A stretch of DNA of 64,000 bases from positions 1-64,000 of the IMG/VR virus record IMGVR_UViG_3300011008_000025. The stretch is one strand, 5' to 3'. Under the pieces are notes generated by a model, which had not been told where the DNA came from, ran no database searches, and saw only the letters and a list, made by a program, of their open reading frames with translations. Numbering within the stretch: position 1 is the first letter of the stretch; every line of letters begins with the position of its first letter. This document shows, one piece after another, positions 3,475-58,713 of the stretch. The position numbers were made by a program, and so were the translations under genes. The stretch comes from a virus. Taxonomy: Duplodnaviria > Caudoviricetes.

Positions 3475-3735
3475 TCGTCTGTAAAATCGTCTGTAAAATT
3501 GGGGTAGAATATAGGTCTACGAAGTAGACTCTCAGTCTACTTTTTACAATTTCTGAAAAACGTTTTGCTTTGAAATGTTCCGAAAAGTTCCTAAAAATAT
3601 GTAAAAGTCCGGACTTTTTGAACAATCCGGACTTTCAACGTATGGAGCAGGGTACGGGAGTCGAACCTGTTTTTCGTGCCACAAACACGTTGAAAATCAA
3701 GGCTTTGCGGATTCGTCTGTAATTTTGTCTGTAAA
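3475..3735. other. attP region: tRNA 3'-end core (3643-3667) with arm-type repeats
   Basis: Minus strand GGTTCGACTCCCGTACCCTGCTCCA is a T-arm, acceptor 3' strand, U discriminator and CCA (tRNA-Gly-like). Paired GTCTGTAA repeats sit at 3475-3498 and 3713-3735, next to the integrase stop. Confidence 0.8.
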
Positions 3736-4815
3736 TGTGTAAAACGCACGCATGGAATCGGCGGCTTCGGACAGGTCTTTTGAGGAGAGATGGATGTATA
3801 TTTTATGCATAGTCTCCCAATCATCCCATCCGCCAATCGCCATGGTTTTACGCTCTTGCCACCCGAGATGGTAGGCAAGCGACGCAAAGGATCTTCTTAA
3901 TCCATGAACGCCAACCTCCGGCAGGCCGGCGTGTCTGCACACCGTATTGATATGATTATAAAGTTTATTGAACCGAATGTCAACGTAAGGTTCGTCAGGG
4001 CCTTTATCTGACGCGTCAATCAGCTCCTGCAGGCGCGGGATCATGATCGGAACGACGCGTGTTGACGCAGTGTTCTTGTTTGCTTTCTTTTCAACAAGAT
4101 TGTTGTCGCGGTCTATGACCATCGATCCGCTGACATGAATACCGTCTTCACGTATCTTGGACGGTGTGATAGCAAGCAGCTCTGAACGCCTCAAAGAATG
4201 AAGCGCAAGCAGCGCGGCAAATTCGCACGGAGTCCCCCGCAGCTCCTCCACGAACCGCAGTACCTGTTCATAGTTCAGCCACGGACGTTCTGTCGGTACT
4301 ACCTGTGGAAGCCTGACATCAGGCGGCGTTATGTGATTGCAGCGCATGACACGGGCAACGAGACCCCAAGCGTTTTTGAGCGTCTTCGGCCCGCACAGTT
4401 TTGCTTCTCGGTTAATGGCCGCCTGCCAATTCACAGACGACAGTTCTTTATCATGATATGGTTTGAAACGATTGCGGCCTATTTCTAAGTACCCGCGTAT
4501 CGTACCGGGAGACAGCACGGCGTCATTCTCGGCAATGTACCTCTCGATTGCCTTTGCCATTGTCAGCTTTGGCGCACTCTTTTGGGCTTCCAAGAATCCT
4601 GCGCGGATCGCTCTTGCTTTCGTGATACACTTCTCTTTGGTGTCTTCCGTTACGCTCTGCCCTTCCGCCCGCAGATAGACATTCCACTTCCCGCTTGCCA
4701 GTTTTTTCGGCTCCGGGATCTTGATCACTTGTTCTTCCTTGACCTGTCTGGCGCCACACCAATTGCAAAAGATAGAATTATCGTCGATCTTGCGTTTGCA
4801 AGCTTTGCACTTCAT
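3697..4815 (-). CDS. int: phage integrase (tyrosine recombinase) with N-terminal zinc ribbon
   Basis: LRRSE, HGLRRS, GGW and IY catalytic pattern; CxxC...CxxC N-terminus; adjacent attP. Confidence 0.92.
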   Translation of the reverse strand: MKCKACKRKIDDNSIFCNWCGARQVKEEQVIKIPEPKKLASGKWNVYLRAEGQSVTEDTKEKCITKARAIRAGFLEAQKSAPKLTMAKAIERYIAENDAVLSPGTIRGYLEIGRNRFKPYHDKELSSVNWQAAINREAKLCGPKTLKNAWGLVARVMRCNHITPPDVRLPQVVPTERPWLNYEQVLRFVEELRGTPCEFAALLALHSLRRSELLAITPSKIREDGIHVSGSMVIDRDNNLVEKKANKNTASTRVVPIMIPRLQELIDASDKGPDEPYVDIRFNKLYNHINTVCRHAGLPEVGVHGLRRSFASLAYHLGWQERKTMAIGGWDDWETMHKIYIHLSSKDLSEAADSMRAFYTFTDKITDESAKP

Positions 4816-9854: not shown

Positions 9855-9938
9855 GCATCACGCTCCTTCTCACTTGTAATTACCCTATTTCTGATATGTA
9901 GGGGTGAAAGAAGGTGGTTCTCCACCCCTACGTTGCTT

Positions 9939-9983
9939 ATTATATCACATTGTTGCGCACTTGTCAATACCCTAATTCTGATT
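9939..9983 (-). promoter_or_regulatory. sigma-A promoter fused to the repeated phage element
   Basis: AATCAGAATTAGGGTA-TTGACA, 17-bp spacer, TATAAT with an extended -10 TG. Confidence 0.85.
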
Positions 9984-11064
9984 CCCAGTTGTGCGCTTCA
10001 AGATCGCGGAAGAATTCATAGGTTTGCGGAGTGAATTGCTGCATATCTTCCAGTGCAATGCGGTAATTCGGGCGGCCGACGTAATAGGCAAACGCCTCGG
10101 CAAAGTATTCCTTGACATTGGTCTCGGCATAATCTCTTAAGTATGCCTGCCCCAAACGGATCTCCTCTTCCCAAAGCGGATCGTTTGATACGTCTCCGAG
10201 ATAGTGGTCGAGGAAGTGTCCAAACTCATGAGCCATAGCATGCGGACATTCAAGAAAGATCACTTTCGATGTGGCCGAGGTCGCTCCGATAACGGATGCG
10301 TTGTATTGATCGCCGAGCCGGCAGAGGTAATCAAAATCAAGTTTGATCTGCCAACCTTCATCTATAAACGCCTGCACGATCGCCGTCGGTAAGTGTACGA
10401 GCTCGTCGTAATATGGCGCGAGATCAACATTTTTTGACGCTTCTATTTGCAGCAATTCCGGCGCCTTGATCATAGACGCACAATCGTTTGTGGCGAGACG
10501 ATAAATGACCGATACAGCTTCTGCTCGCGTGGAAATCACGCCGCTTGCCGCATACGCTTCACACAGGCCGACCTGATAAGCGGTGCGCATTACATTTTCT
10601 GTCGTTGTCATATGCTCCCCGCCATAGACTTCGTTTGGATATACAGAAATGCCGTAGGCGCGAAACGCGCTTTTGTACAGGTTCCATCTGCACCATGAAG
10701 ATTCAGGACTTGTTACGGCGACATCGTCGATCCAACCGCGATCGAATGCGTGCGACAAGCTGGCGTCTCCAAAAGCCCCATTGTCATTTATTGCGCTCTC
10801 GACGCGGAAGGCGCGGCACAGCATGACGGCCCACTGACGTGTGGTCACGGGATCGTCCGGGGAGAACCGGCTATTTCCTGTGCCATTTGTAATGCCGTTG
10901 GATGTGGCCCATGCGACGGCTTCGTAGTAATCGGCGTTGCGGGAAACATCGCTGTACAGGTCATGCTCGGGCCCGAGCGCTATATAAGCTGTCTGCGTCA
11001 GAATAACGAGTATCAGCAGAATGACAAGCGGAAGCAAACGATGGCGGTGCATATCAATCACCAT
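9964..11064 (-). CDS. exported SLH-domain protein with anthrax-lethal-factor-like Zn-metallopeptidase domain
   Basis: Signal/TM helix; SLH motif (YSDV...GITNG...FSPDDPVTTRQWAVML); HEFGH and YAETNVKEYFAEAF. Confidence 0.75.
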   Translation of the reverse strand: MVIDMHRHRLLPLVILLILVILTQTAYIALGPEHDLYSDVSRNADYYEAVAWATSNGITNGTGNSRFSPDDPVTTRQWAVMLCRAFRVESAINDNGAFGDASLSHAFDRGWIDDVAVTSPESSWCRWNLYKSAFRAYGISVYPNEVYGGEHMTTTENVMRTAYQVGLCEAYAASGVISTRAEAVSVIYRLATNDCASMIKAPELLQIEASKNVDLAPYYDELVHLPTAIVQAFIDEGWQIKLDFDYLCRLGDQYNASVIGATSATSKVIFLECPHAMAHEFGHFLDHYLGDVSNDPLWEEEIRLGQAYLRDYAETNVKEYFAEAFAYYVGRPNYRIALEDMQQFTPQTYEFFRDLEAHNWESELGY

Positions 11065-16676: not shown

Positions 16677-17791
16677 CACTGCTACCTCGCCTTTCGGCGA
16701 GGGTTAGACTATATCTTCGACCCTATTATCCTCGCATTGCCGCTATTGCCAAACGGTATTTACGAGCAATTGCAATATCTGCGTTATCATAAAGCGCCGA
16801 CGCCAATTTTTGTGCCCACGCACCATTAAACGTTATACGGTATACATTATCGCTCACCTGGATTTTGAGCGGTGCATCTCTCCCGATCATGCTGCAGCAC
16901 ACATTTCCGACATCGCGTACCAGTGATTGAAAGTGACCGCAATAATTGATGTGCCATGACCCTTGGCTAAAATAAATACTGCCATCACCGTCAATTAATC
17001 CACGAACATAATCTTTCATATATTGTTCGGGGATATTTTGTGGCAGTACGCGAACGCGATGGGTTTTATCTTGCACGATATGATAAGCAGCAAGAGTAGA
17101 CGCCATGTGCGCCGATCGAAATTTCAGAGTATATGTACCATGTTTTCTGCCTGCTCGCTTTGCATAGCACAGCTTGGTGCTCAACCCGATCGCGTCACGC
17201 AGTCTGTGCAAGATCTCGACGTCACTCTCTATAAGCTCAATGCTGATTTCTGGCTGCCTAATGCGCTCAGCATCATAAATCACGCTTCCGTCGGTTAATA
17301 ATAATCCCAAGAAGTACGCCTTTTCAGCAGAATCAACTACATCGAAATACTGATCGTTCATATGGCGATTTGCGCCCTTGCGATAGTTGATAGAAACGTT
17401 ATGAGCTTTTAGGATGCCACTGATAGTTTGTACTTTGGCGCTATACTTTGCCGCGATCACTTTTTGTGTACAGCGCTGGACGGTATACATATGAACAATG
17501 TCGTCAACCTGCTCTTGTGTCCATGTCCTCTTTGTCACTCTTTCACCTCCCGTTGTTTAATGGCAATATATCGGGTCGTCTTGTTTTTCGGGCTTGCGCC
17601 CTACTCCTTATGGATAGTCGTTGAACCTTCCCCTATTCGGGGCTTGGCTGCTGATTGCCCAATCCGCACTGTTTTCACACCATCGCGCCCAGGCGTTTCA
17701 TCCTCACGCTGTGGTCTGTGCGGCTCTCAGGGTGTTCCAGCAATTTACAAGATTGTCAACCGAGCGTTGCCGCGCGGCGGGGCAAGATTTT
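16677..17791 (-). mobile_element. group I intron in phoH
   Basis: The 5' exon ends TCGGGT and pairs with GCCC. P10 pairs ATCTT with exon AAGAT. The intron has the R element TTCAACGACTA, the S element AAGATATAGTCT and a terminal G at 16677. Splicing restores Walker A GPFGSG|KDLLM. Confidence 0.9.
16726..17538 (-). CDS. LAGLIDADG homing endonuclease (intron-encoded)
   Basis: AYFLGLLLTDGSV and YVRGLIDGDGSI. Confidence 0.9.
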   Translation of the reverse strand: MTKRTWTQEQVDDIVHMYTVQRCTQKVIAAKYSAKVQTISGILKAHNVSINYRKGANRHMNDQYFDVVDSAEKAYFLGLLLTDGSVIYDAERIRQPEISIELIESDVEILHRLRDAIGLSTKLCYAKRAGRKHGTYTLKFRSAHMASTLAAYHIVQDKTHRVRVLPQNIPEQYMKDYVRGLIDGDGSIYFSQGSWHINYCGHFQSLVRDVGNVCCSMIGRDAPLKIQVSDNVYRITFNGAWAQKLASALYDNADIAIARKYRLAIAAMRG

Positions 17792-18112
17792 ACCCGAGCC
17801 AAAAGGCCCCTGTAGCATTTTGACGGTCATATCCGTGTTGTAAAGCATATCGATCGCGCATACCTGCTGCGGGTTGCGGGGGCGGATCGTACCAAGATAT
17901 CTGGTTTTGATCTGCTTGGTCGGAACGCGGACATGCGTTTCGCCGTTCCAGCGGTATGTATCGATCGTGTTGCCATCAATATCTGTGAGGAGCAGATATT
18001 CGTTTCGGAACAGATCGAAGCGATTAAACGTAAGATCGCTGTAGAAGGCGGCGAGCTCTTCGTCGCTTAAATACCGATCGACAAATCCCAGATATTTATC
18101 ACTCAATGCCAA
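17792..18112 (-). CDS. phoH: PhoH-like ATPase, exon 1
   Basis: IRPRNPQQ and GPFGSG. Confidence 0.88.
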
Positions 18113-32383: not shown

Positions 32384-32457
32384 TGGTACTGCGGAAAAGA
32401 GTTGAACTTTTATCAGACGATTATAAGTCGCCCGCTCTGCCGTTGAGCTACCGCAGT
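32384..32457 (-). tRNA. tRNA-Ile (anticodon UAU)
   Basis: Cloverleaf with ACTGCGG/CCGCAGT, anticodon loop CTTATAA and encoded CCA. Confidence 0.85.
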
Positions 32458-32460
32458 GTG

Positions 32461-32536
32461 TGGAGCTGCCGATGAGACTTGAACTCATAACCTACGCCTT
32501 ACAGGGGCGTCGCTCTTCCAATTGAGCTACGACAGC
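32461..32536 (-). tRNA. tRNA-Thr (anticodon UGU), C at position 33
   Basis: GCTGTCG/CGGCAGC, anticodon loop CCTGTAA and CCA. Confidence 0.8.
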
Positions 32537-32748
32537 GTATGTCCGCTTAGACCGTCAAAACTAAGCGGCGCTTGCAGGTGAAGCCGTTTCTGTTACCCGA
32601 TTTTGACAAAGGAGGATGAGAAAAGAAAACAAAATCGGCGGTACTGTGTCCGGGTCTGCCTGCGGTTCGCGGCACATTAAGGATTCGCAAAGAATAGTTG
32701 TTCCGCCGTCTGCAATAAGACGGTGTGCCCTCCGGTTTTTGTGAAAGA

Positions 32749-32825
32749 TGGTACTGGCGGCGGGGATCGAACCCGCAGAAACCGGATTTTAAGTCCGGTG
32801 CGTCTGCCAATTGCGCCACGCCAGC
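32749..32825 (-). tRNA. tRNA-Leu (anticodon UAA) with short variable loop
   Basis: GCTGGCG/CGCCAGT, Leu-type D-arm, anticodon loop CTTAAAA and CCA. Confidence 0.85.
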
Positions 32826-32877
32826 ATAATTGTGAATACCCTAATTCTGATTTTATGATCCGAAAAGAAAAGGACGG

Positions 32878-33810
32878 TTAACCGCCCCTTTCTTTTACGG
32901 CTTCCAAATAACATTGGTAGGCGTGCAAAAGGTCGTTTTTGTGTGTCGTGCTTTTGACTCCGAAGAAACGAACAATATGACTGGCGTCCGCCTGGATGCC
33001 ATATTTTTCGGTAAAAGCCCGGATCTCGGCGAAGGCGCCGAAATAATTCAGGTCGCGGATGGATACCACAACCTCCTGGCCGATGGCGGCGCCGGCCTCC
33101 GTAATGGTGTTGGATAAAAACCGGGTTCCGATCGGCTTGTTTTTGGCGGAGCCACGCTTCACAAATCTGCGGTAAAAAGTGTCGCCGTCTGCCTTCTCCA
33201 GCGGGGCGGCGTTGCCGATCACGACCTCTGTCTCGGCGTATTCATGCAGCTTGCGGGACACAAAACCGTCGTCGATCATGTGGTTCCCGATCATAACGCT
33301 GCCGTCGCCTGAGAAGTATACCTCATTTTCTTTCAGAGTGCGGATGTCCTCGGCGCTCTGCCCCAGCCACGCCAGACAGTAGATGACCGGAAGCTGTGCG
33401 CTTTCGCGGTAGTTGCGGAGTTTGTTGCACACGAGCTCCAGATCGTTCTCTGTCAGCACAAGCTGTTTGGAAAAGGCGGGCGTCAGGGAAAAGTTGTACG
33501 TCTCCCCGTTTGCGATGGTCGGGTGGTCTTTTTCGTTGACGAACACGCCGTCTGTAATGCAGCGCCAGCGGACATACAGCTTGCCGTAATGAAAAATATT
33601 GCGGTAGGTCCTATAGGCAATAGTGGTTCCTTTTTCCTCGACGCTTTGATAGATCTCTTTTGTGCGTCCTGCGGCGACCAGTTCAAAATAGTCGGTGTTC
33701 AGCGGCTCCTCGATCATTTCCGCAATGCGCCCCATGGAATAGGTGGCCTGCACGACGTCCGCTTTACTTAAAGATTCGATGAATTTTTGTTTGATCTCCG
33801 GGTTGAACAT
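32878..33810 (-). CDS. MrpR/YopR-like repressor (degenerate tyrosine-recombinase fold)
   Basis: MFNPEIKQKFIESLS N-terminus matches my recall of SPbeta YopR. The recombinase-like core (LAWLG...IRTLK) lacks the R and HxxR catalytic residues. The repeated element flanks the gene. Confidence 0.7.
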   Translation of the reverse strand: MFNPEIKQKFIESLSKADVVQATYSMGRIAEMIEEPLNTDYFELVAAGRTKEIYQSVEEKGTTIAYRTYRNIFHYGKLYVRWRCITDGVFVNEKDHPTIANGETYNFSLTPAFSKQLVLTENDLELVCNKLRNYRESAQLPVIYCLAWLGQSAEDIRTLKENEVYFSGDGSVMIGNHMIDDGFVSRKLHEYAETEVVIGNAAPLEKADGDTFYRRFVKRGSAKNKPIGTRFLSNTITEAGAAIGQEVVVSIRDLNYFGAFAEIRAFTEKYGIQADASHIVRFFGVKSTTHKNDLLHAYQCYLEAVKERGG

Positions 33811-33835
33811 GAACATTCCTCCTCGCATTACAGGT

Positions 33836-33880
33836 ATTATACCATATGTAAGCGAGTTTGTCAATACCCTATTTCTGATT
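33836..33880 (-). promoter_or_regulatory. sigma-A promoter fused to the repeated element, upstream of the MrpR-like gene
   Basis: AATCAGAAATAGGGTA-TTGACA, 17-bp spacer, TATAAT. Confidence 0.85.
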
Positions 33881-34239
33881 TATTCTGTTGGAAATGGAGA
33901 TTGTACGCGCCGGGCTCGTCCCACACGGATCAGGTCGTTCCATGTAAGATGACCGAGCTTGCGGCTGAGCTGCGACTGATTGATGGTCTGCGTCTGTTCG
34001 GTCAGCGCGATGCTGTCCTGACGCAATCCGTTTTCCTGTTCGGCACTGATCACAACGTGCGTCGGCAGATAGCTGGCCTTGCCGACACGGCTGGACATCG
34101 GAATGACTTCGATCGTGGGACTGTGCTGATTGCCCGTGTTGTTCTGCGCGATGATCACGGGGCGGATTCCTCCCTGCACACTGCCATTCACGGTTAGGCT
34201 GGCGACGTAAACGTCACCGAAATCCGGTATTCTGTTCAT
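33880..34239 (-). CDS. mazF: PemK/MazF family endoribonuclease (orphan)
   Basis: GDVY, GSVQGGIRPVIIAQNNTGN...SPT, LPTHV and DSIALTEQ. Confidence 0.9.
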   Translation of the reverse strand: MNRIPDFGDVYVASLTVNGSVQGGIRPVIIAQNNTGNQHSPTIEVIPMSSRVGKASYLPTHVVISAEQENGLRQDSIALTEQTQTINQSQLSRKLGHLTWNDLIRVGRARRVQSPFPTE

Positions 34240-34262
34240 ACAACGACCTCCCTTCGTGTGTA

Positions 34263-34307
34263 ACTATAGCACATTTGCGCCGATTTGTCAATACCCTAAT
34301 TCTTATT
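34263..34307 (-). promoter_or_regulatory. sigma-A promoter fused to the repeated element, upstream of mazF
   Basis: AATAAGAATTAGGGTA-TTGACA, 17-bp spacer, TATAGT. Confidence 0.8.
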
Positions 34308-34521
34308 TTTTCGAAAATTTTGTGAAATCCAGTTCGAGCTTAGGGGCTGACACGTCGTGGGACTCGACCAAGATCATCTGATTGTTGGCCGGGTCATAGT
34401 AGACAGCCGCGTATTTCCCTCCCTCGCGGTGGTCGAAATACAGTACGGCGTTCTCGCCATAAGTCTGCAGTGTCTCGCCGCAAAGCCGGCGCACACGTCT
34501 GGTGGTTCTGAACCGTTTCAT
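34303..34521 (-). CDS. hypothetical protein
   Basis: Packed in operon; RBS. Confidence 0.55.
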   Translation of the reverse strand: MKRFRTTRRVRRLCGETLQTYGENAVLYFDHREGGKYAAVYYDPANNQMILVESHDVSAPKLELDFTKFSKK

Positions 34522-34772
34522 GGGCTGGACACCATCCTTTTCAGTTTTTCAATTTCCTCTTGCGCAAATGCGTGGTCTATGTAGTGCGGCCTGTCGTCTT
34601 CGTCCAGGTAGCACAGCGCTGCTTTGTAGTTATAGTTGGTCATGATGACCATGGCCCGTTTGGCGTAATCGGGAATGCCTGGTGCCGGCAGTGTGACCGG
34701 CACCTCACAGCACACATAATCATCGTCACGTCTGGTCTCGGCTTGGTTCCAGTTAAGATTCATGTTCCTCAT
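34518..34772 (-). CDS. hypothetical protein
   Basis: Packed in operon. Confidence 0.55.
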   Translation of the reverse strand: MRNMNLNWNQAETRRDDDYVCCEVPVTLPAPGIPDYAKRAMVIMTNYNYKAALCYLDEDDRPHYIDHAFAQEEIEKLKRMVSSP

Positions 34773-34774
34773 CC

Positions 34775-35011
34775 TTATTCTGCTGCATTCTCTAAATTTC
34801 CGATGGCTTCCTCTAAATTGCTGCTCGCTTCTTCCAGTGCGTCAAGGGCGTTTTCTGCGATCTCACCCCTTTCCGATCCCTGTAAATTCTCAGGCATGTT
34901 GTCGAAGTAGTCCTGTTCGTCGTCCCGGATCGACTCGATTTCTTCTGAGAGCTGTTCGAGCTTTTCGGCGATGGCACGGATGGCTGCGCGACGTTTGTTG
35001 TTCATGGGCAT
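34775..35011 (-). CDS. conserved coiled-coil phage protein (DNMPENLQGS motif)
   Basis: MNNKRR...DEQDYFDNMPENLQ.S.RG pattern. Confidence 0.75.
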   Translation of the reverse strand: MPMNNKRRAAIRAIAEKLEQLSEEIESIRDDEQDYFDNMPENLQGSERGEIAENALDALEEASSNLEEAIGNLENAAE

Positions 35012-35016
35012 TCCTC

Positions 35017-35736
35017 CTATTTTATATTGTCGTAGTCATGCTGCTTCCTTGTCAATGCGAGACGTGCGTCTTCGCGCGTACGCTTGCCATGCAAAACATC
35101 GTAAACAAGTGTAACAATATCACTTGGAAAACCGCCTGTTCTATATGGCCCCGGCATGAATGGAGTATAGCTATTACCAAAATCTTGATAGACATTGCTT
35201 GGGAGATATCCATGTTTGATCACTTCATATCGAGCAAGTCCAAGGCAATACATGGCCGGCGATAGATACCACGTTCGTATCTCTAAACTTCCTCCATAAG
35301 AACACCATGGTTCTTTATAGGTATATACGACAGAATCTCTATAGTTCCATTCCACATCAGAATGATAGTAATCTCCAGGCTGAAATGTCATATGCTTATG
35401 TGTTTTAAGCATAGAAGCCCCATATTCAACCGTCCATTCGTCATATGCACTTCCTGGAGGGTGTTCACCTTCGTATTTTTTAAGCATTACGTCATAAAGC
35501 CGCATCGCCTCATCAAATTCCAATAGGAAGTTATAACGCGTTGGGTTTTGTCCATTCAAAAGCTCTCGTAGTGTGTTGCTGCGCTCATTGCCAATGCTTT
35601 GAATTTGATCTGCTGTATCGTATAGTTTCTTTTGCCACTTACGGTATTTCATAACACTGCTTGTATTGGCGCCGATAGCGGCAACAACAAAAACAATGAG
35701 CGCGAATAAAAAAATCACGACTTCCAAAGTTATCAC
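35017..35736 (-). CDS. membrane-anchored hypothetical protein (AT-richer, moron-like)
   Basis: N-terminal TM helix; visibly lower GC than neighbours. Confidence 0.65.
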   Translation of the reverse strand: MITLEVVIFLFALIVFVVAAIGANTSSVMKYRKWQKKLYDTADQIQSIGNERSNTLRELLNGQNPTRYNFLLEFDEAMRLYDVMLKKYEGEHPPGSAYDEWTVEYGASMLKTHKHMTFQPGDYYHSDVEWNYRDSVVYTYKEPWCSYGGSLEIRTWYLSPAMYCLGLARYEVIKHGYLPSNVYQDFGNSYTPFMPGPYRTGGFPSDIVTLVYDVLHGKRTREDARLALTRKQHDYDNIK

Positions 35737-35963
35737 CTCCCAGCCAACGCGTCGTAATACGCCTTGCGGTCTTTTCGTTTTTGTTTCATAACTTCACGCT
35801 GCTTCCAGTACGGATGATCGTTTTTCCGCAGATGGAAGCACTGTTTCTGCAGACATTCATGGAGACGCATCTCCGGGACCGTCAAATTCCTTTTGTGATG
35901 GGCACAGTAGGCGCAGGGATTTTTCGGCTTTCCTCCGTACAGACTCTTTTTCATACGGCCCAC
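35733..35963 (-). CDS. small Cys/His-rich basic protein
   Basis: AYCAHH...ECLQKQC. Confidence 0.6.
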   Translation of the reverse strand: MGRMKKSLYGGKPKNPCAYCAHHKRNLTVPEMRLHECLQKQCFHLRKNDHPYWKQREVMKQKRKDRKAYYDALAGR

Positions 35964-36748
35964 GCTCCCGAACTGCGGTAGAAATCCATTCCGTTCTTCC
36001 GACCCAGACCGAGACTTAAGGTTTTGTAAGCGTTCTGGATCTCATCTTCCGTGATACCGATGTAATGCATGGTCATCTGCGGCGTGGAGTGGTTCAGGAT
36101 CGTCTGCACGATCTCAAGCGCCCGGTTTCGATCCGGCACACTCATCAGCGTCTGATACGCAAACGTCTTCCGCATCATGTGGGTGCTGGCGTGAACGTCC
36201 AATTTCAGCTCTGCTTCCACGATCTGTTTCAGAATGCGCTCAGCGTTGCGACGTGACAGGCATTTGGATTCGTCCCAGAGACCGACGTTGTTGCTCTGAC
36301 TGGTAAACAGGTAATCATCCAGATCGATGCGGCGGCCGGACATGTAAATTTTCAGCGCGTCGAACACGTCGTCGTTCACATACACATGCCGGCGTTTCAG
36401 TCTGGCGTTTGTGTTTTCCGTTTTCTCCTCGATCAGCTCGATCATATCACGCACTCGCCCGTTCGGCTCCAGGATGTGTCCGTACTGCAGCCGCAGCAGG
36501 TCTCCTGCCCGCAGGCCGAAATTGATTCCCATGACGAACATCAGGTAATCCCGCAGACGAATTTCCTCTTTGCGGTAGTCCCGCCGGTTCAGGATATAAT
36601 CTTCGACCAGCATGATATCTTCAATGCGCTTGATCGGTGTCGCAGCATGACTTCTTGCGATTTCGTTTCTTCCGTGGAACGCACTCTGTACAACTTCATA
36701 ATCCGTGTTTCTCGGCTTCGTCGGATCAAACAGGATCAGCTCTCCCAT
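35951..36748 (-). CDS. tyrosine recombinase (catalytic domain only, XerC-like)
   Basis: GLRAGDL, EEKT, HMMRKTF, LNHS and HYIG intact. Confidence 0.9.
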   Translation of the reverse strand: MGELILFDPTKPRNTDYEVVQSAFHGRNEIARSHAATPIKRIEDIMLVEDYILNRRDYRKEEIRLRDYLMFVMGINFGLRAGDLLRLQYGHILEPNGRVRDMIELIEEKTENTNARLKRRHVYVNDDVFDALKIYMSGRRIDLDDYLFTSQSNNVGLWDESKCLSRRNAERILKQIVEAELKLDVHASTHMMRKTFAYQTLMSVPDRNRALEIVQTILNHSTPQMTMHYIGITEDEIQNAYKTLSLGLGRKNGMDFYRSSGAWAV

Positions 36749-36811
36749 ATACACTCCTTTCCAGTTGGGAGGGCGAAGCGAATTGCTTTTCAGCAGCCCG
36801 CTTCGCACTCG

Positions 36812-36934
36812 ATTATACTGATTTTTTGGAATTTGTCAATGCATTTGCAAAAGTTTAATGCTTCACAATTACGCATTTGCGTAATATCTATTTTTCTATA
36901 CACTCATCATACGTTACCAATTACTGTCTGTCAA
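36812..36934 (-). promoter_or_regulatory. tandem sigma-A promoters upstream of the recombinase
   Basis: TTGACA-17-TATGAT (about 36906-36934) and TTGACA-16-TATAAT (about 36812-36839). Confidence 0.65.
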
Positions 36935-57462: not shown

Positions 57463-57654
57463 CGCCGCGTAGTGCTGTAACACCACGCGGCGGCGCCTCA
57501 GAAAGCCTTACAGATTTCATTGTAAGATCGGGCCCCGCTTGCACGGGGTTACCAAATAGACACCAGGGTCTATTGATCCACAATGAAATAAAGGCGTATA
57601 CACATTATACTCGTAATCTTGCAGTTTTGTCAAAAGGAAAGGGAGGTGAGACAA

Positions 57655-58713
57655 GTGGGTCGCAAGGTACAACAGAATAAGATTACGTCGCCGGAGAAGC
57701 TGGCGGCGGTCAATCCGAAAAATATGGAGCTGAAACGGGACTTTCTGGCCTACTTGCGCTCCATTCAGAGGTCGCCGAACACCATTAAGGGGTACGATAA
57801 CGACCTCGATATCATTATGGTGTTCCTGCTGGAACGCTGTGGCAACAAGGAGTTTGTCAGCGTTAAGAAGCGGGAATGGGTGGCCATGCAGGACTGGATG
57901 GTCAACGAAAATGGCAACAGTGCGGCGAGAGTGCGCCGTATCAAGGCTGTGATCAGCAGCCTGTCCAATTATGTGTCCAACATTCTGGCAGAGGACGAGC
58001 CCGATGAATTCGGCAGTTTCAAGCCTACGATTCGCGGCATAGAAAACCCGGTAAATACGCCGGTTATGGAGAAGACGGTACTCAGCGACGAGGAGGTCAA
58101 CACCGTGTTGTCTGCCCTGATGGACGCAAAACAGTATGAAAAGGCTTGCTACTTTGCGCTGGCTGCGTTCAGCGGGCGCAGAAAAAGTGAGTTGTTCCGC
58201 TTCAAGACGGAGCATTTTGGTCCAGATCATCTGATCTGTAACGGCGCTTTGTACTCTACGCTAGAGACGATCCAGTCGAAGGGGCGCGGGGTTACCGGCA
58301 AACAGATCGTGTTTTATACGCTGGCGAAGGACTTTCAGCCGTATTTCGACGCGTGGATGCAGTATAGGGAACAAATCGGCCTCGACAGTCCGTGGATGTT
58401 CCCCGATCCGGACGACCCGACGCAGCCAAGAGATCACAACATTGCTAACTCGTGGACGCATACGTTCAGCCGCGTGCTGTTTGAGAGCACCGGGCGCGCA
58501 GACAAGATCTATTCGCACGCGCTGCGGCACTACTATACGACTCGCCTGAGCAAGAGCGGTGTGCCGCACAATGTGATCAAGGAGATCGTTGCGTGGGAAG
58601 ATGTGTCTATGGTTGCGCGATACGACGACACAGACGTCGCGGAGAGTTTCTCTGACTACTTTACGGCGGATGGTATTAAGGGCACTGAGAAGAAATCGCT
58701 TAGCGACCTGTGA
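57655..58713 (+). CDS. tyrosine recombinase (SAM-like plus catalytic domains)
   Basis: SPNTIKGY, SGRRKSEL, KGRG, HALRH, W and RY intact. Confidence 0.9.
   Translation: MGRKVQQNKITSPEKLAAVNPKNMELKRDFLAYLRSIQRSPNTIKGYDNDLDIIMVFLLERCGNKEFVSVKKREWVAMQDWMVNENGNSAARVRRIKAVISSLSNYVSNILAEDEPDEFGSFKPTIRGIENPVNTPVMEKTVLSDEEVNTVLSALMDAKQYEKACYFALAAFSGRRKSELFRFKTEHFGPDHLICNGALYSTLETIQSKGRGVTGKQIVFYTLAKDFQPYFDAWMQYREQIGLDSPWMFPDPDDPTQPRDHNIANSWTHTFSRVLFESTGRADKIYSHALRHYYTTRLSKSGVPHNVIKEIVAWEDVSMVARYDDTDVAESFSDYFTADGIKGTEKKSLSDL

Follow-up and report, generated by a model that had tools for sequence, protein, structure and literature searches.

In a 64,000-nucleotide (nt) stretch of phage DNA, hereafter the window (positions 1-64,000 of a 95,035-bp linear IMG/VR contig that CheckV estimates to be 81% complete), we found a gene for a MazF-type RNase followed on the same strand by a gene for a protein resembling MrpR/SroF, the repressors of SPbeta-type phages, with one operator-like element fused to both promoters. 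We hold with moderate confidence that the two genes belong to an SPbeta-type repressor module whose regulon includes the phage-borne MazF, the protein being a putative DNA-binding repressor with a presumed role in lysogeny. Read along the minus strand, the order is an element with promoter, mazF, a second element with promoter, the MrpR-like gene, a promoter-less element and three tRNA genes (tRNA-Leu at 32749-32825, then tRNA-Thr and tRNA-Ile). Every feature that the first-pass annotation had placed here lies where it was said to lie, and its claim that both promoters share one element is borne out by two copies without mismatch. No open reading frame (ORF) separates the mazF promoter, PmazF, from mazF. 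The module consists of the following features, with protein lengths in amino acids (aa):

34285-34303, minus strand: operator-like element copy overlapping the -35 of PmazF, 0 mismatches
34263-34291, minus strand: PmazF, TTGACA-17-TATAGT with TG; the element copy overlaps its -35
33880-34239, minus strand: mazF, gene for a 119-aa PemK/MazF protein (EndoA-type), Pfam PF02452
33858-33876, minus strand: operator-like element copy overlapping the -35 of PmrpR, 0 mismatches
33836-33864, minus strand: PmrpR, TTGACA-17-TATAAT with an extended -10 TG; UACAUAUG in its spacer
32878-33810, minus strand: mrpR/sroF-like gene, 310 aa, putative master repressor by profile and fold matches
32830-32848, minus strand: element copy without a promoter (TTCACA, no -10), between the end of mrpR and the adjoining tRNA-Leu; candidate operator of the roadblock type
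32384-32825, minus strand: cluster of tRNA-Leu(UAA), tRNA-Thr(UGU) and tRNA-Ile(UAU) downstream of the module (ARAGORN, Rfam)

By its sequence matches, the 310-aa protein (start MFNPEIK, preceded by a GAGGAGG ribosome-binding site) is a distant full-length homologue of MrpR/YopR/SroF that lies outside the curated Pfam models. Against 50,697 phage records, tblastn matched solely yopR of the SPbeta family, with 26% identity over 73% of the query, and phmmer with the single sequence returned YopR/MrpR from the PDB sequences at an expectation value (E) of 2e-4. An exhaustive HMMER search of 1.84 billion representatives recovered only 12 relatives. The 13-member family profile matched PDB YopR at E 8.6e-12 over positions 1-282 of 304, and also matched the phi3T SroF chain; the iterated family hidden Markov model (HMM) matched YopR of phage Goe14 at E 1.5e-24 and left the true recombinase beside it unmatched. 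The AlphaFold2 model (predicted local distance difference test (pLDDT) 86.6, predicted template modelling score (pTM) 0.83) displays the two-domain fold of tyrosine recombinases, core-binding (CB) plus catalytic (CAT), and is nearest to MrpR/SroF, Foldseek ranks 1-6 being taken by YopR, MrpR, SroF with DNA (template modelling (TM) score 0.62) and SroF with Sar, ahead of XerA, lambda Int and Cre. The first-pass annotation had called the gene an MrpR-like dead recombinase, and this identity is supported both by the profile and by the structural match to MrpR found in the fold comparison.

A catalytically dead homologue with the integrase fold best explains the protein, as judged from the family alignment, whose invariant columns contain neither R nor H. 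W148 and L149 align to V137 and S138 of MrpR, the position of recombinase Arg-I, and the near-invariant Y298 corresponds to the tyrosine that MrpR retains, Y304 (Table 3 of PMC10516654). The earlier statement that the repressor lacks the recombinase R and HxxR residues therefore stands in so far as no catalytic Arg or His is conserved, but not literally, since an HIVR string is present at residues 278-281. Because this string is misplaced (17-20 residues before Y298, not ~31-35) and unconserved in the family, it is not the recombinase H-x-x-R motif. Such genes are called 'integrase' in PHROG-type annotation (phrog_5830), which is likely an annotation error. A search of viral contigs with the single MrpR-like protein gave no related loci, and a word-index protein search, within the limits of its index, gave only three near-identical MrpR-like proteins and two MazF entries.

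The 119-aa protein looks like an active RNase of the EndoA type. It matched PemK_toxin (PF02452) with 76 bits against a cut-off of 23.1 (E 3.3e-21), phrog_1936 at E 3e-24 and PDB MazF/EndoA at E 6e-21, and its alignments to B. subtilis EndoA and S. aureus MazF span the full length. Relative to R25 and T48, which we take to be the catalytic residues of B. subtilis EndoA, the arginine is kept and invariant in the clade (R26), and the threonine is replaced by an invariant serine (S49), a substitution for which compatibility with catalysis is chemically plausible. MazF is 54-61% identical across related cassettes and 42-52% identical to chromosomal MazF of Clostridia, and in the close clade it ends in a conserved C-terminal tail, RRxQSPFP. 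The QSPFP tail was considered as a mark of MrpR-linked toxins and rejected, as only 2 of 27 linked viral MazFs carry it.

The 19-nt element AGAAWTAGGGTATTSACAA occurs without mismatch at all three module positions. As AGAAWTAGGGTATTGACAA it has 11 copies in the window against 0.03 expected, always oriented with transcription, and no copy in contig bases 64001-95035. The eight further copies are located as follows:

9874, 9961, 30767, 38472, 47667 and 47931, minus strand: element copies
52308 and 52395, plus strand: element copies

Together with its flanks, the element forms a conserved stretch of ~24 nt, AAATCAGAAWTAGGGTATTSACAA, which is asymmetric and not palindromic. In five or six copies the element overlaps the -35 of an early promoter of the sigma-A type, and five promoter-less copies sit immediately before ribosome-binding sites and genes or before tRNAs; we read the latter as roadblock operators, with a role at the RNA level as the alternative. 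At 9874/9961 (minus) and 52308/52395 (plus), a promoter-fused copy has a promoter-less one exactly 87 nt downstream of it, and these pairs look like a repeated promoter-plus-leader module with two operators.

In the related loci L008, L009, L011 and L015/16, both positions, immediately 5' of the mrpR promoter -35 and immediately after the mrpR stop, are taken by a different, lineage-specific element of 10-16 nt. These elements recur at other places in their loci, on the coding strand throughout (in L009, 4 copies where 0.01 would be expected; in L011, 3 where 0.01 would be expected), and L110, L111 and L131 have the same element design. The window's own element is confined to relatives of 82% identity. 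Since each lineage that was checked has its own element at the same positions, the pattern points to the MrpR-like protein as the binder of the element, and a fast-diverging DNA-binding protein beside its own fast-diverging sites looks like an immunity repressor. Monomeric SroF binds a 26-bp box, of which it reads 24 bp (10.1101/2025.11.27.690993), and MrpR binds SPBRE, a repeated element scattered over SPbeta (PMC10516654); both published sites fit with the ~24-nt oriented element described here.

The pairing recurs far from the window. A PemK gene lies directly upstream of the distant MrpR-like relatives P0004, P0005, P0008 and P0014, in the first two of which a recombinase gene is also found ~3 kb upstream; the relatives P0009 and P0010 are MrpR-like without MazF. 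MazF likewise adjoins MrpR-like genes in L002, L008, L009, L011/12 and L015/16. When IMG/VR was scanned with the MazF alignment and the best 80 loci were searched with the iterated MrpR-like HMM, 27 of these 80 had an MrpR-like gene on the same strand, mostly directly downstream of mazF, with a few 1.4-2 kb away and two in reversed order. With the first set, the 27 loci fall into ~18 clusters at 50% identity. As controls for drift, the HMM matched the genuine Goe14 YopR and not its neighbouring recombinase, and it never gave more than one match per locus. Adjacency of mazF and the MrpR-like gene is thus conserved in many divergent lineages, and full-text searches of the literature returned no paper describing it. 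None of 80 chromosomal mazF loci of Clostridia has an MrpR-like neighbour. Of 399 Clostridia assemblies sampled, one (G201) has the pair, on a contig of at least 135 kb; the assembly gave no match to the terminase query, and its contig 9 no integrase.

Only part of the phage MazF genes show the pairing, and orphan-looking MazF genes were found in 92 phage records. In the cultured Enterocloster phages PMBT24 (L177) and CB473P1 (L178), of ~100 kb, a module of tail genes contains an orphan MazF whose annotation reads 'mRNA interferase' or hypothetical, and the iterated MrpR-like HMM found no match near it. A 337-aa gene near MazF in Heliusvirales NatCom phages was tried as an MrpR-like candidate and dropped, as the same HMM did not match it.

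Upstream of mazF, the window continues into a same-strand cassette that begins with a true recombinase gene:

36812-36934, minus strand: two consensus sigma-A promoters without the element, heading the recombinase-to-mrpR cassette
35951-36808, minus strand: true tyrosine recombinase, 285 aa (PF00589 at E 2.7e-15; phrog_216)
35017-35963, minus strand: 239-aa and 76-aa cassette ORFs, no assigned function
34518-35011, minus strand: 84-aa ORF and acidic 78-aa ORF (phrog_4068) of the cassette
34303-34521, minus strand: 72-aa ORF (ORF72) directly upstream of mazF, its position kept in the close clade

Between the two element-less promoters and upstream of the 285-aa recombinase gene lies a perfect 18-bp palindrome, ATTACGCAAATGCGTAAT (36868-36885), at which a second regulator of the cassette, acting as a dimer, may bind. 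A recombinase upstream of the repressor is found in the same order in L008 and L009, and the order in the SPbeta-like phage Goe14 is xerC_2, yopQ, yopR. In L118 and ~35 similar IMG/VR loci, a 103-aa MazF is followed by an 88-aa ORF, a HicA-like ORF and homologues of the 285-aa recombinase and of phrog_4068, with the cassette genes reordered and no detectable MrpR-like gene.

Compared with MrpR (YopR)/SroF (PDB 8A0A, 8BJ6, 9RD5), the 310-aa protein shares the CB+CAT fold, with these proteins as its top sequence and fold matches, the loss of the catalytic Arg/His with retention of the Tyr, a length of about 310-325 aa, a long, asymmetric, oriented element scattered over the genome, and a true recombinase gene a few genes upstream on the same strand. 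It differs in being only about 18-26% identical, below the Pfam thresholds, and in belonging to a phage with a probable Clostridia host, 50% GC and an element unrelated to the AT-rich phi3T box; moreover, no divergent Sar-like gene follows the repressor gene, tRNA genes standing there instead, and no AimR was found. As in the sroA-F (yopMNOPQR) cassette of phi3T/SPbeta (PMC10769878), the repressor ends a same-strand cassette that includes a recombinase, here the 285-aa protein in the position of YopP/SroD in SPbeta, and that is probably linked in function to a MazF RNase. However, the present phage encodes MazF itself, directly before the repressor, whereas the Bacillus phages use host MazF. 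The toxin in turn resembles that of the chromosomal mazEF (ndoAI-ndoA/EndoA) of Firmicutes in fold family, catalytic Arg and sequence (42-52% identity), but has no MazE gene that could be found, its own promoter with a phage operator and, in the close clade, the C-terminal tail.

These data suggest a mechanism in which the MrpR-like protein would bind the ~24-nt element as a monomer, like SroF. Binding at copies over the -35 of early promoters would repress transcription, and binding at promoter-less copies before genes and tRNAs would block read-through. Because the mazF promoter and the repressor's own promoter both carry the element, MazF would be part of the repressor's regulon. Its synthesis would follow infection, resume on derepression and last in either case until the operators are occupied by repressor, which would then hold MazF low in the lysogen. 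In phi3T, MazF promotes lysogeny, and in phi3T/SPbeta host MazF is freed when SroA/phi3T_93 binds MazE (PMC10769878); the background from which the first-pass annotation had argued (host MazEF, arbitrium, MrpR as master repressor) agrees with this paper and with PMC10516654. The phage studied here would itself supply the MazF activity that phi3T and SPbeta get by freeing host MazF from MazE. MazF would then act as a transient translation brake that spares the repressor message, and would favour, or at least accompany, the establishment of repression.

UACAU is the usual cleavage site of EndoA-type MazF of Firmicutes. Over 18 lineages, the MrpR-like coding sequences contain 8 UACAU sites, compared with 19.9 expected from codon shuffling or 24.5 from the locus background (P about 2e-3 to 1e-4), and 13 of the 18 have none. 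In four loci UACAUAUG lies in the spacer of the mrpR promoter, which places it on read-through transcripts from PmazF and off the repressor's own message. The depletion of the MazF motif predicted for phage transcripts at large is absent, since UACAU is enriched early, neutral on the late strand (34 against 32 expected) and depleted only in repressor genes. On the early strand UACAUA numbers 30 against 15 and UACAU is in the top 1% of 5-mers, the sites lying mostly inside coding sequence in no obvious positional pattern.

Several points weigh against the mechanism proposed above. We infer DNA binding, repression, the temperate lifestyle and both the specificity and the role of MazF, the lifestyle for a contig that is linear and incomplete. 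The MrpR-like protein scores below threshold with Pfam MrpR_N_CB (PF22822; 15.8 bits against a cut-off of 27), which its relatives P0008-P0010 and P0014 carry, and it has no match to MrpR_C_cat (PF22823) at E <= 1. The element patterns of the relatives were chosen after inspection, which makes the chance estimates optimistic, and other cassette proteins also diverge among lineages, so that the co-variation does not strictly single out the MrpR-like protein. UACAU is a presumed motif of this MazF, and its depletion is suggestive only: zero sites in the window's mrpR alone is not significant (1.2 expected), and on the early minus strand (3300-52250) UACAU is enriched, at 63 against 44 expected. 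Phage MazF also occurs in unrelated contexts, as in the tail module of the Enterocloster phages. Finally, equal repression of PmazF and PmrpR would leave some MazF in the lysogen, which would require an unseen inhibitor.

The first-pass annotation had further proposed a switch independent of arbitrium, having seen no aimR in the window. In agreement, the AimR model PF22871 gave no match at E <= 1 in the 95-kb contig (81% complete), and tblastn gave no match there to the Goe14 aimR region. Homologues of SroA, YosL, AimX or AimR were not found either, AimP and AimX being too short to search for. About 19% of the genome is missing from the contig; judged from the remainder, a self-contained variant of the phi3T/SPbeta MazF circuit is plausible. 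A bolder proposal, which we put forward tentatively and regard as doubtful, is that widespread large phages of Clostridia have internalised the SPbeta-type MazF arm, with an antitoxin-less MazF under the repressor and RNA cleavage tipping the phage into dormancy. Cleavage at UACAU would then cut phage and host messages, the cut-site-free repressor message would survive, no peptide signal would be needed, and the promoter-less operators would be protein roadblocks insulating a module expressed in the lysogen.

Alternatively, MazF could be an ordinary toxin-antitoxin or defence 'moron' beside the immunity gene, uninvolved in the choice between lysis and lysogeny and comparable in its placement to rexAB next to cI in lambda. 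An unrecognised antitoxin (ORF72, a small cassette protein, an AimX-like peptide or host MazE) would silence MazF, which would be expressed in the lysogen and abort superinfecting phages or stabilise the prophage. No MazE was recognised, either adjacent to mazF, as the first-pass annotation had observed, or elsewhere in the 95-kb contig, with Pfam MazE_antitoxin (PF04014), RHH_1 (PF01402) or a profile of ribbon-helix-helix (RHH) MazE from Clostridia, built from 15 MazE ORFs sited -7 to +6 nt from their mazF. Chromosomal mazF genes of Clostridia (loci L017-L096) have an RHH-type MazE ORF directly upstream in only 15 of 80 cases, and several lie so close behind alanine racemase that no antitoxin gene would fit between; chromosomal MazF without an apparent antitoxin may be frequent in Clostridia.

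ORF72 is a candidate for a MazF inhibitor. Small ORFs of 71-82 aa, weakly alignable with one another, lie directly upstream of mazF in six loci (the window, L002, L008, L009, L011 and L015). It has no Pfam, PHROG or NCBIfam match and no usable match in the protein atlas, its AlphaFold2 model (one helix and four strands, pLDDT 85) is neither an RHH nor an AbrB fold, and Foldseek against the PDB gave nothing at E <= 0.001; prediction of a complex of the MazF dimer with ORF72 scored 0.00, which gives no verdict either way. No cognate antitoxin was recognised among the small upstream ORFs. A 63-nt gap containing a promoter separates ORF72 from mazF, compared with -7 to +6 nt at the chromosomal RHH MazE loci, and L131, L156 and L111 keep the pair with a 241-283-aa gene upstream and no small ORF. 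The fold of ORF72, the separating promoter and the loss of the small ORF in several lineages lower the probability of an ordinary toxin-antitoxin pair, and the MrpR-like gene is the only partner that stays with MazF across lineages. On the other hand, the operator-less consensus promoters at the head of the cassette could express it in the lysogen, and orphan-looking MazF genes are common in phages. The small phi3T peptide AimX is a MazE-like antitoxin (10.1101/2025.11.23.689978), which makes undetected inhibitors plausible, and host MazEF is reported to serve as a phage defence in Bacillus (10.1101/2023.04.27.537455). A novel antitoxin, whether ORF72, a small peptide such as an AimX-like one or host MazE, is possible, and we judge that a moron of this kind is conceivable though on balance improbable.

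It is very unlikely, in our estimate, that the MrpR-like protein is itself the antitoxin, in a pair of reversed order of the higBA/mqsRA type in which it would bind MazF and autoregulate. The MrpR-like gene is the one constant companion of this MazF, mostly as its immediate downstream neighbour on the same strand, and both promoters share one operator, as in autoregulated toxin-antitoxin operons. Yet MazF is 54-61% conserved and the MrpR-like proteins only 20-27%, which would be unusual for a tight protein pair; in most lineages a separate promoter stands between the two genes, and several lineages have reversed order or a separation of 1.4-2 kb. Furthermore, MrpR-like proteins without MazF exist (SPbeta, P0009, P0010), and the element's nine sites far from the pair suggest a genome-wide role for the protein.

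No more probable is a virulent phage in which the MrpR-like protein would be a temporal regulator that switches early promoters off (or on) through the element, and MazF an early host-shutoff nuclease, with no lysogeny involved. In its favour, the only promoters marked by the element are those of long operons for replication and early functions, the repressor gene is embedded in the early array and read in the same direction, and the cultured Enterocloster phages of ~100 kb carry MazF too. Against it, the nearest characterised relatives of the MrpR-like protein act as lysogeny repressors in temperate phages, a 372-aa integrase-like gene ends the early array with two other recombinase genes elsewhere, and a bacterial assembly has the pair, on the contig of at least 135 kb.

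The phage is best explained as a large (about 100-120 kb), distantly SPbeta-like one, with GC ~50% in the contig, and its host is probably an anaerobic gut member of the Bacillota/Firmicutes (Clostridia). The minus strand holds all genes from ~3.3 to 52.2 kb, an array that encodes DNA polymerase III alpha, a primase-helicase, an anaerobic ribonucleotide reductase, recombination functions and tRNAs, and the plus strand takes over from 52.3 kb on. An SPbeta-like backbone is seen in a terminase-like gene 30% identical to that of Goe14, an xerC_1-like gene and the recombinase upstream of the repressor. Beside the dead recombinase, the window has three true tyrosine-recombinase genes, the one at 35951-36808 and two others:

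3697-4815, minus strand: true tyrosine recombinase, 372 aa, integrase-like, at the end of the early array
57619-58713, plus strand: true tyrosine recombinase, 364 aa, in the late region, resembling xerC_1 of the SPbeta-like phage Goe14

Among the three, the 372-aa protein is likeliest to be the integrase. LexA (Cheo) boxes are not enriched, with 3 sites against 3.25 expected. A group I intron on the minus strand (16685-17801; Rfam RF00028, 69.7 bits) encloses a 270-aa ORF (16726-17538), presumably a homing endonuclease, and a 366-aa ORF (9964-11064, minus strand) with an S-layer homology domain and a match to the Pfam ATLF (metalloprotease-like) model is possibly an enzyme directed at the cell wall.

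Only two Bacillus phages are known to tie MazF to the lysis-lysogeny decision, via the host toxin-antitoxin system and arbitrium. If a phage-borne MazF beside this class of repressor is indeed a conserved module of many uncultured gut phages without arbitrium, the connection between MazF and the repressor would have an earlier origin and a wider reach than the Bacillus model implies, and the two genes would offer a simpler system for testing how an RNase biases a phage toward dormancy. Repressors with the integrase fold and long monomeric operators would then extend well beyond Bacillus.

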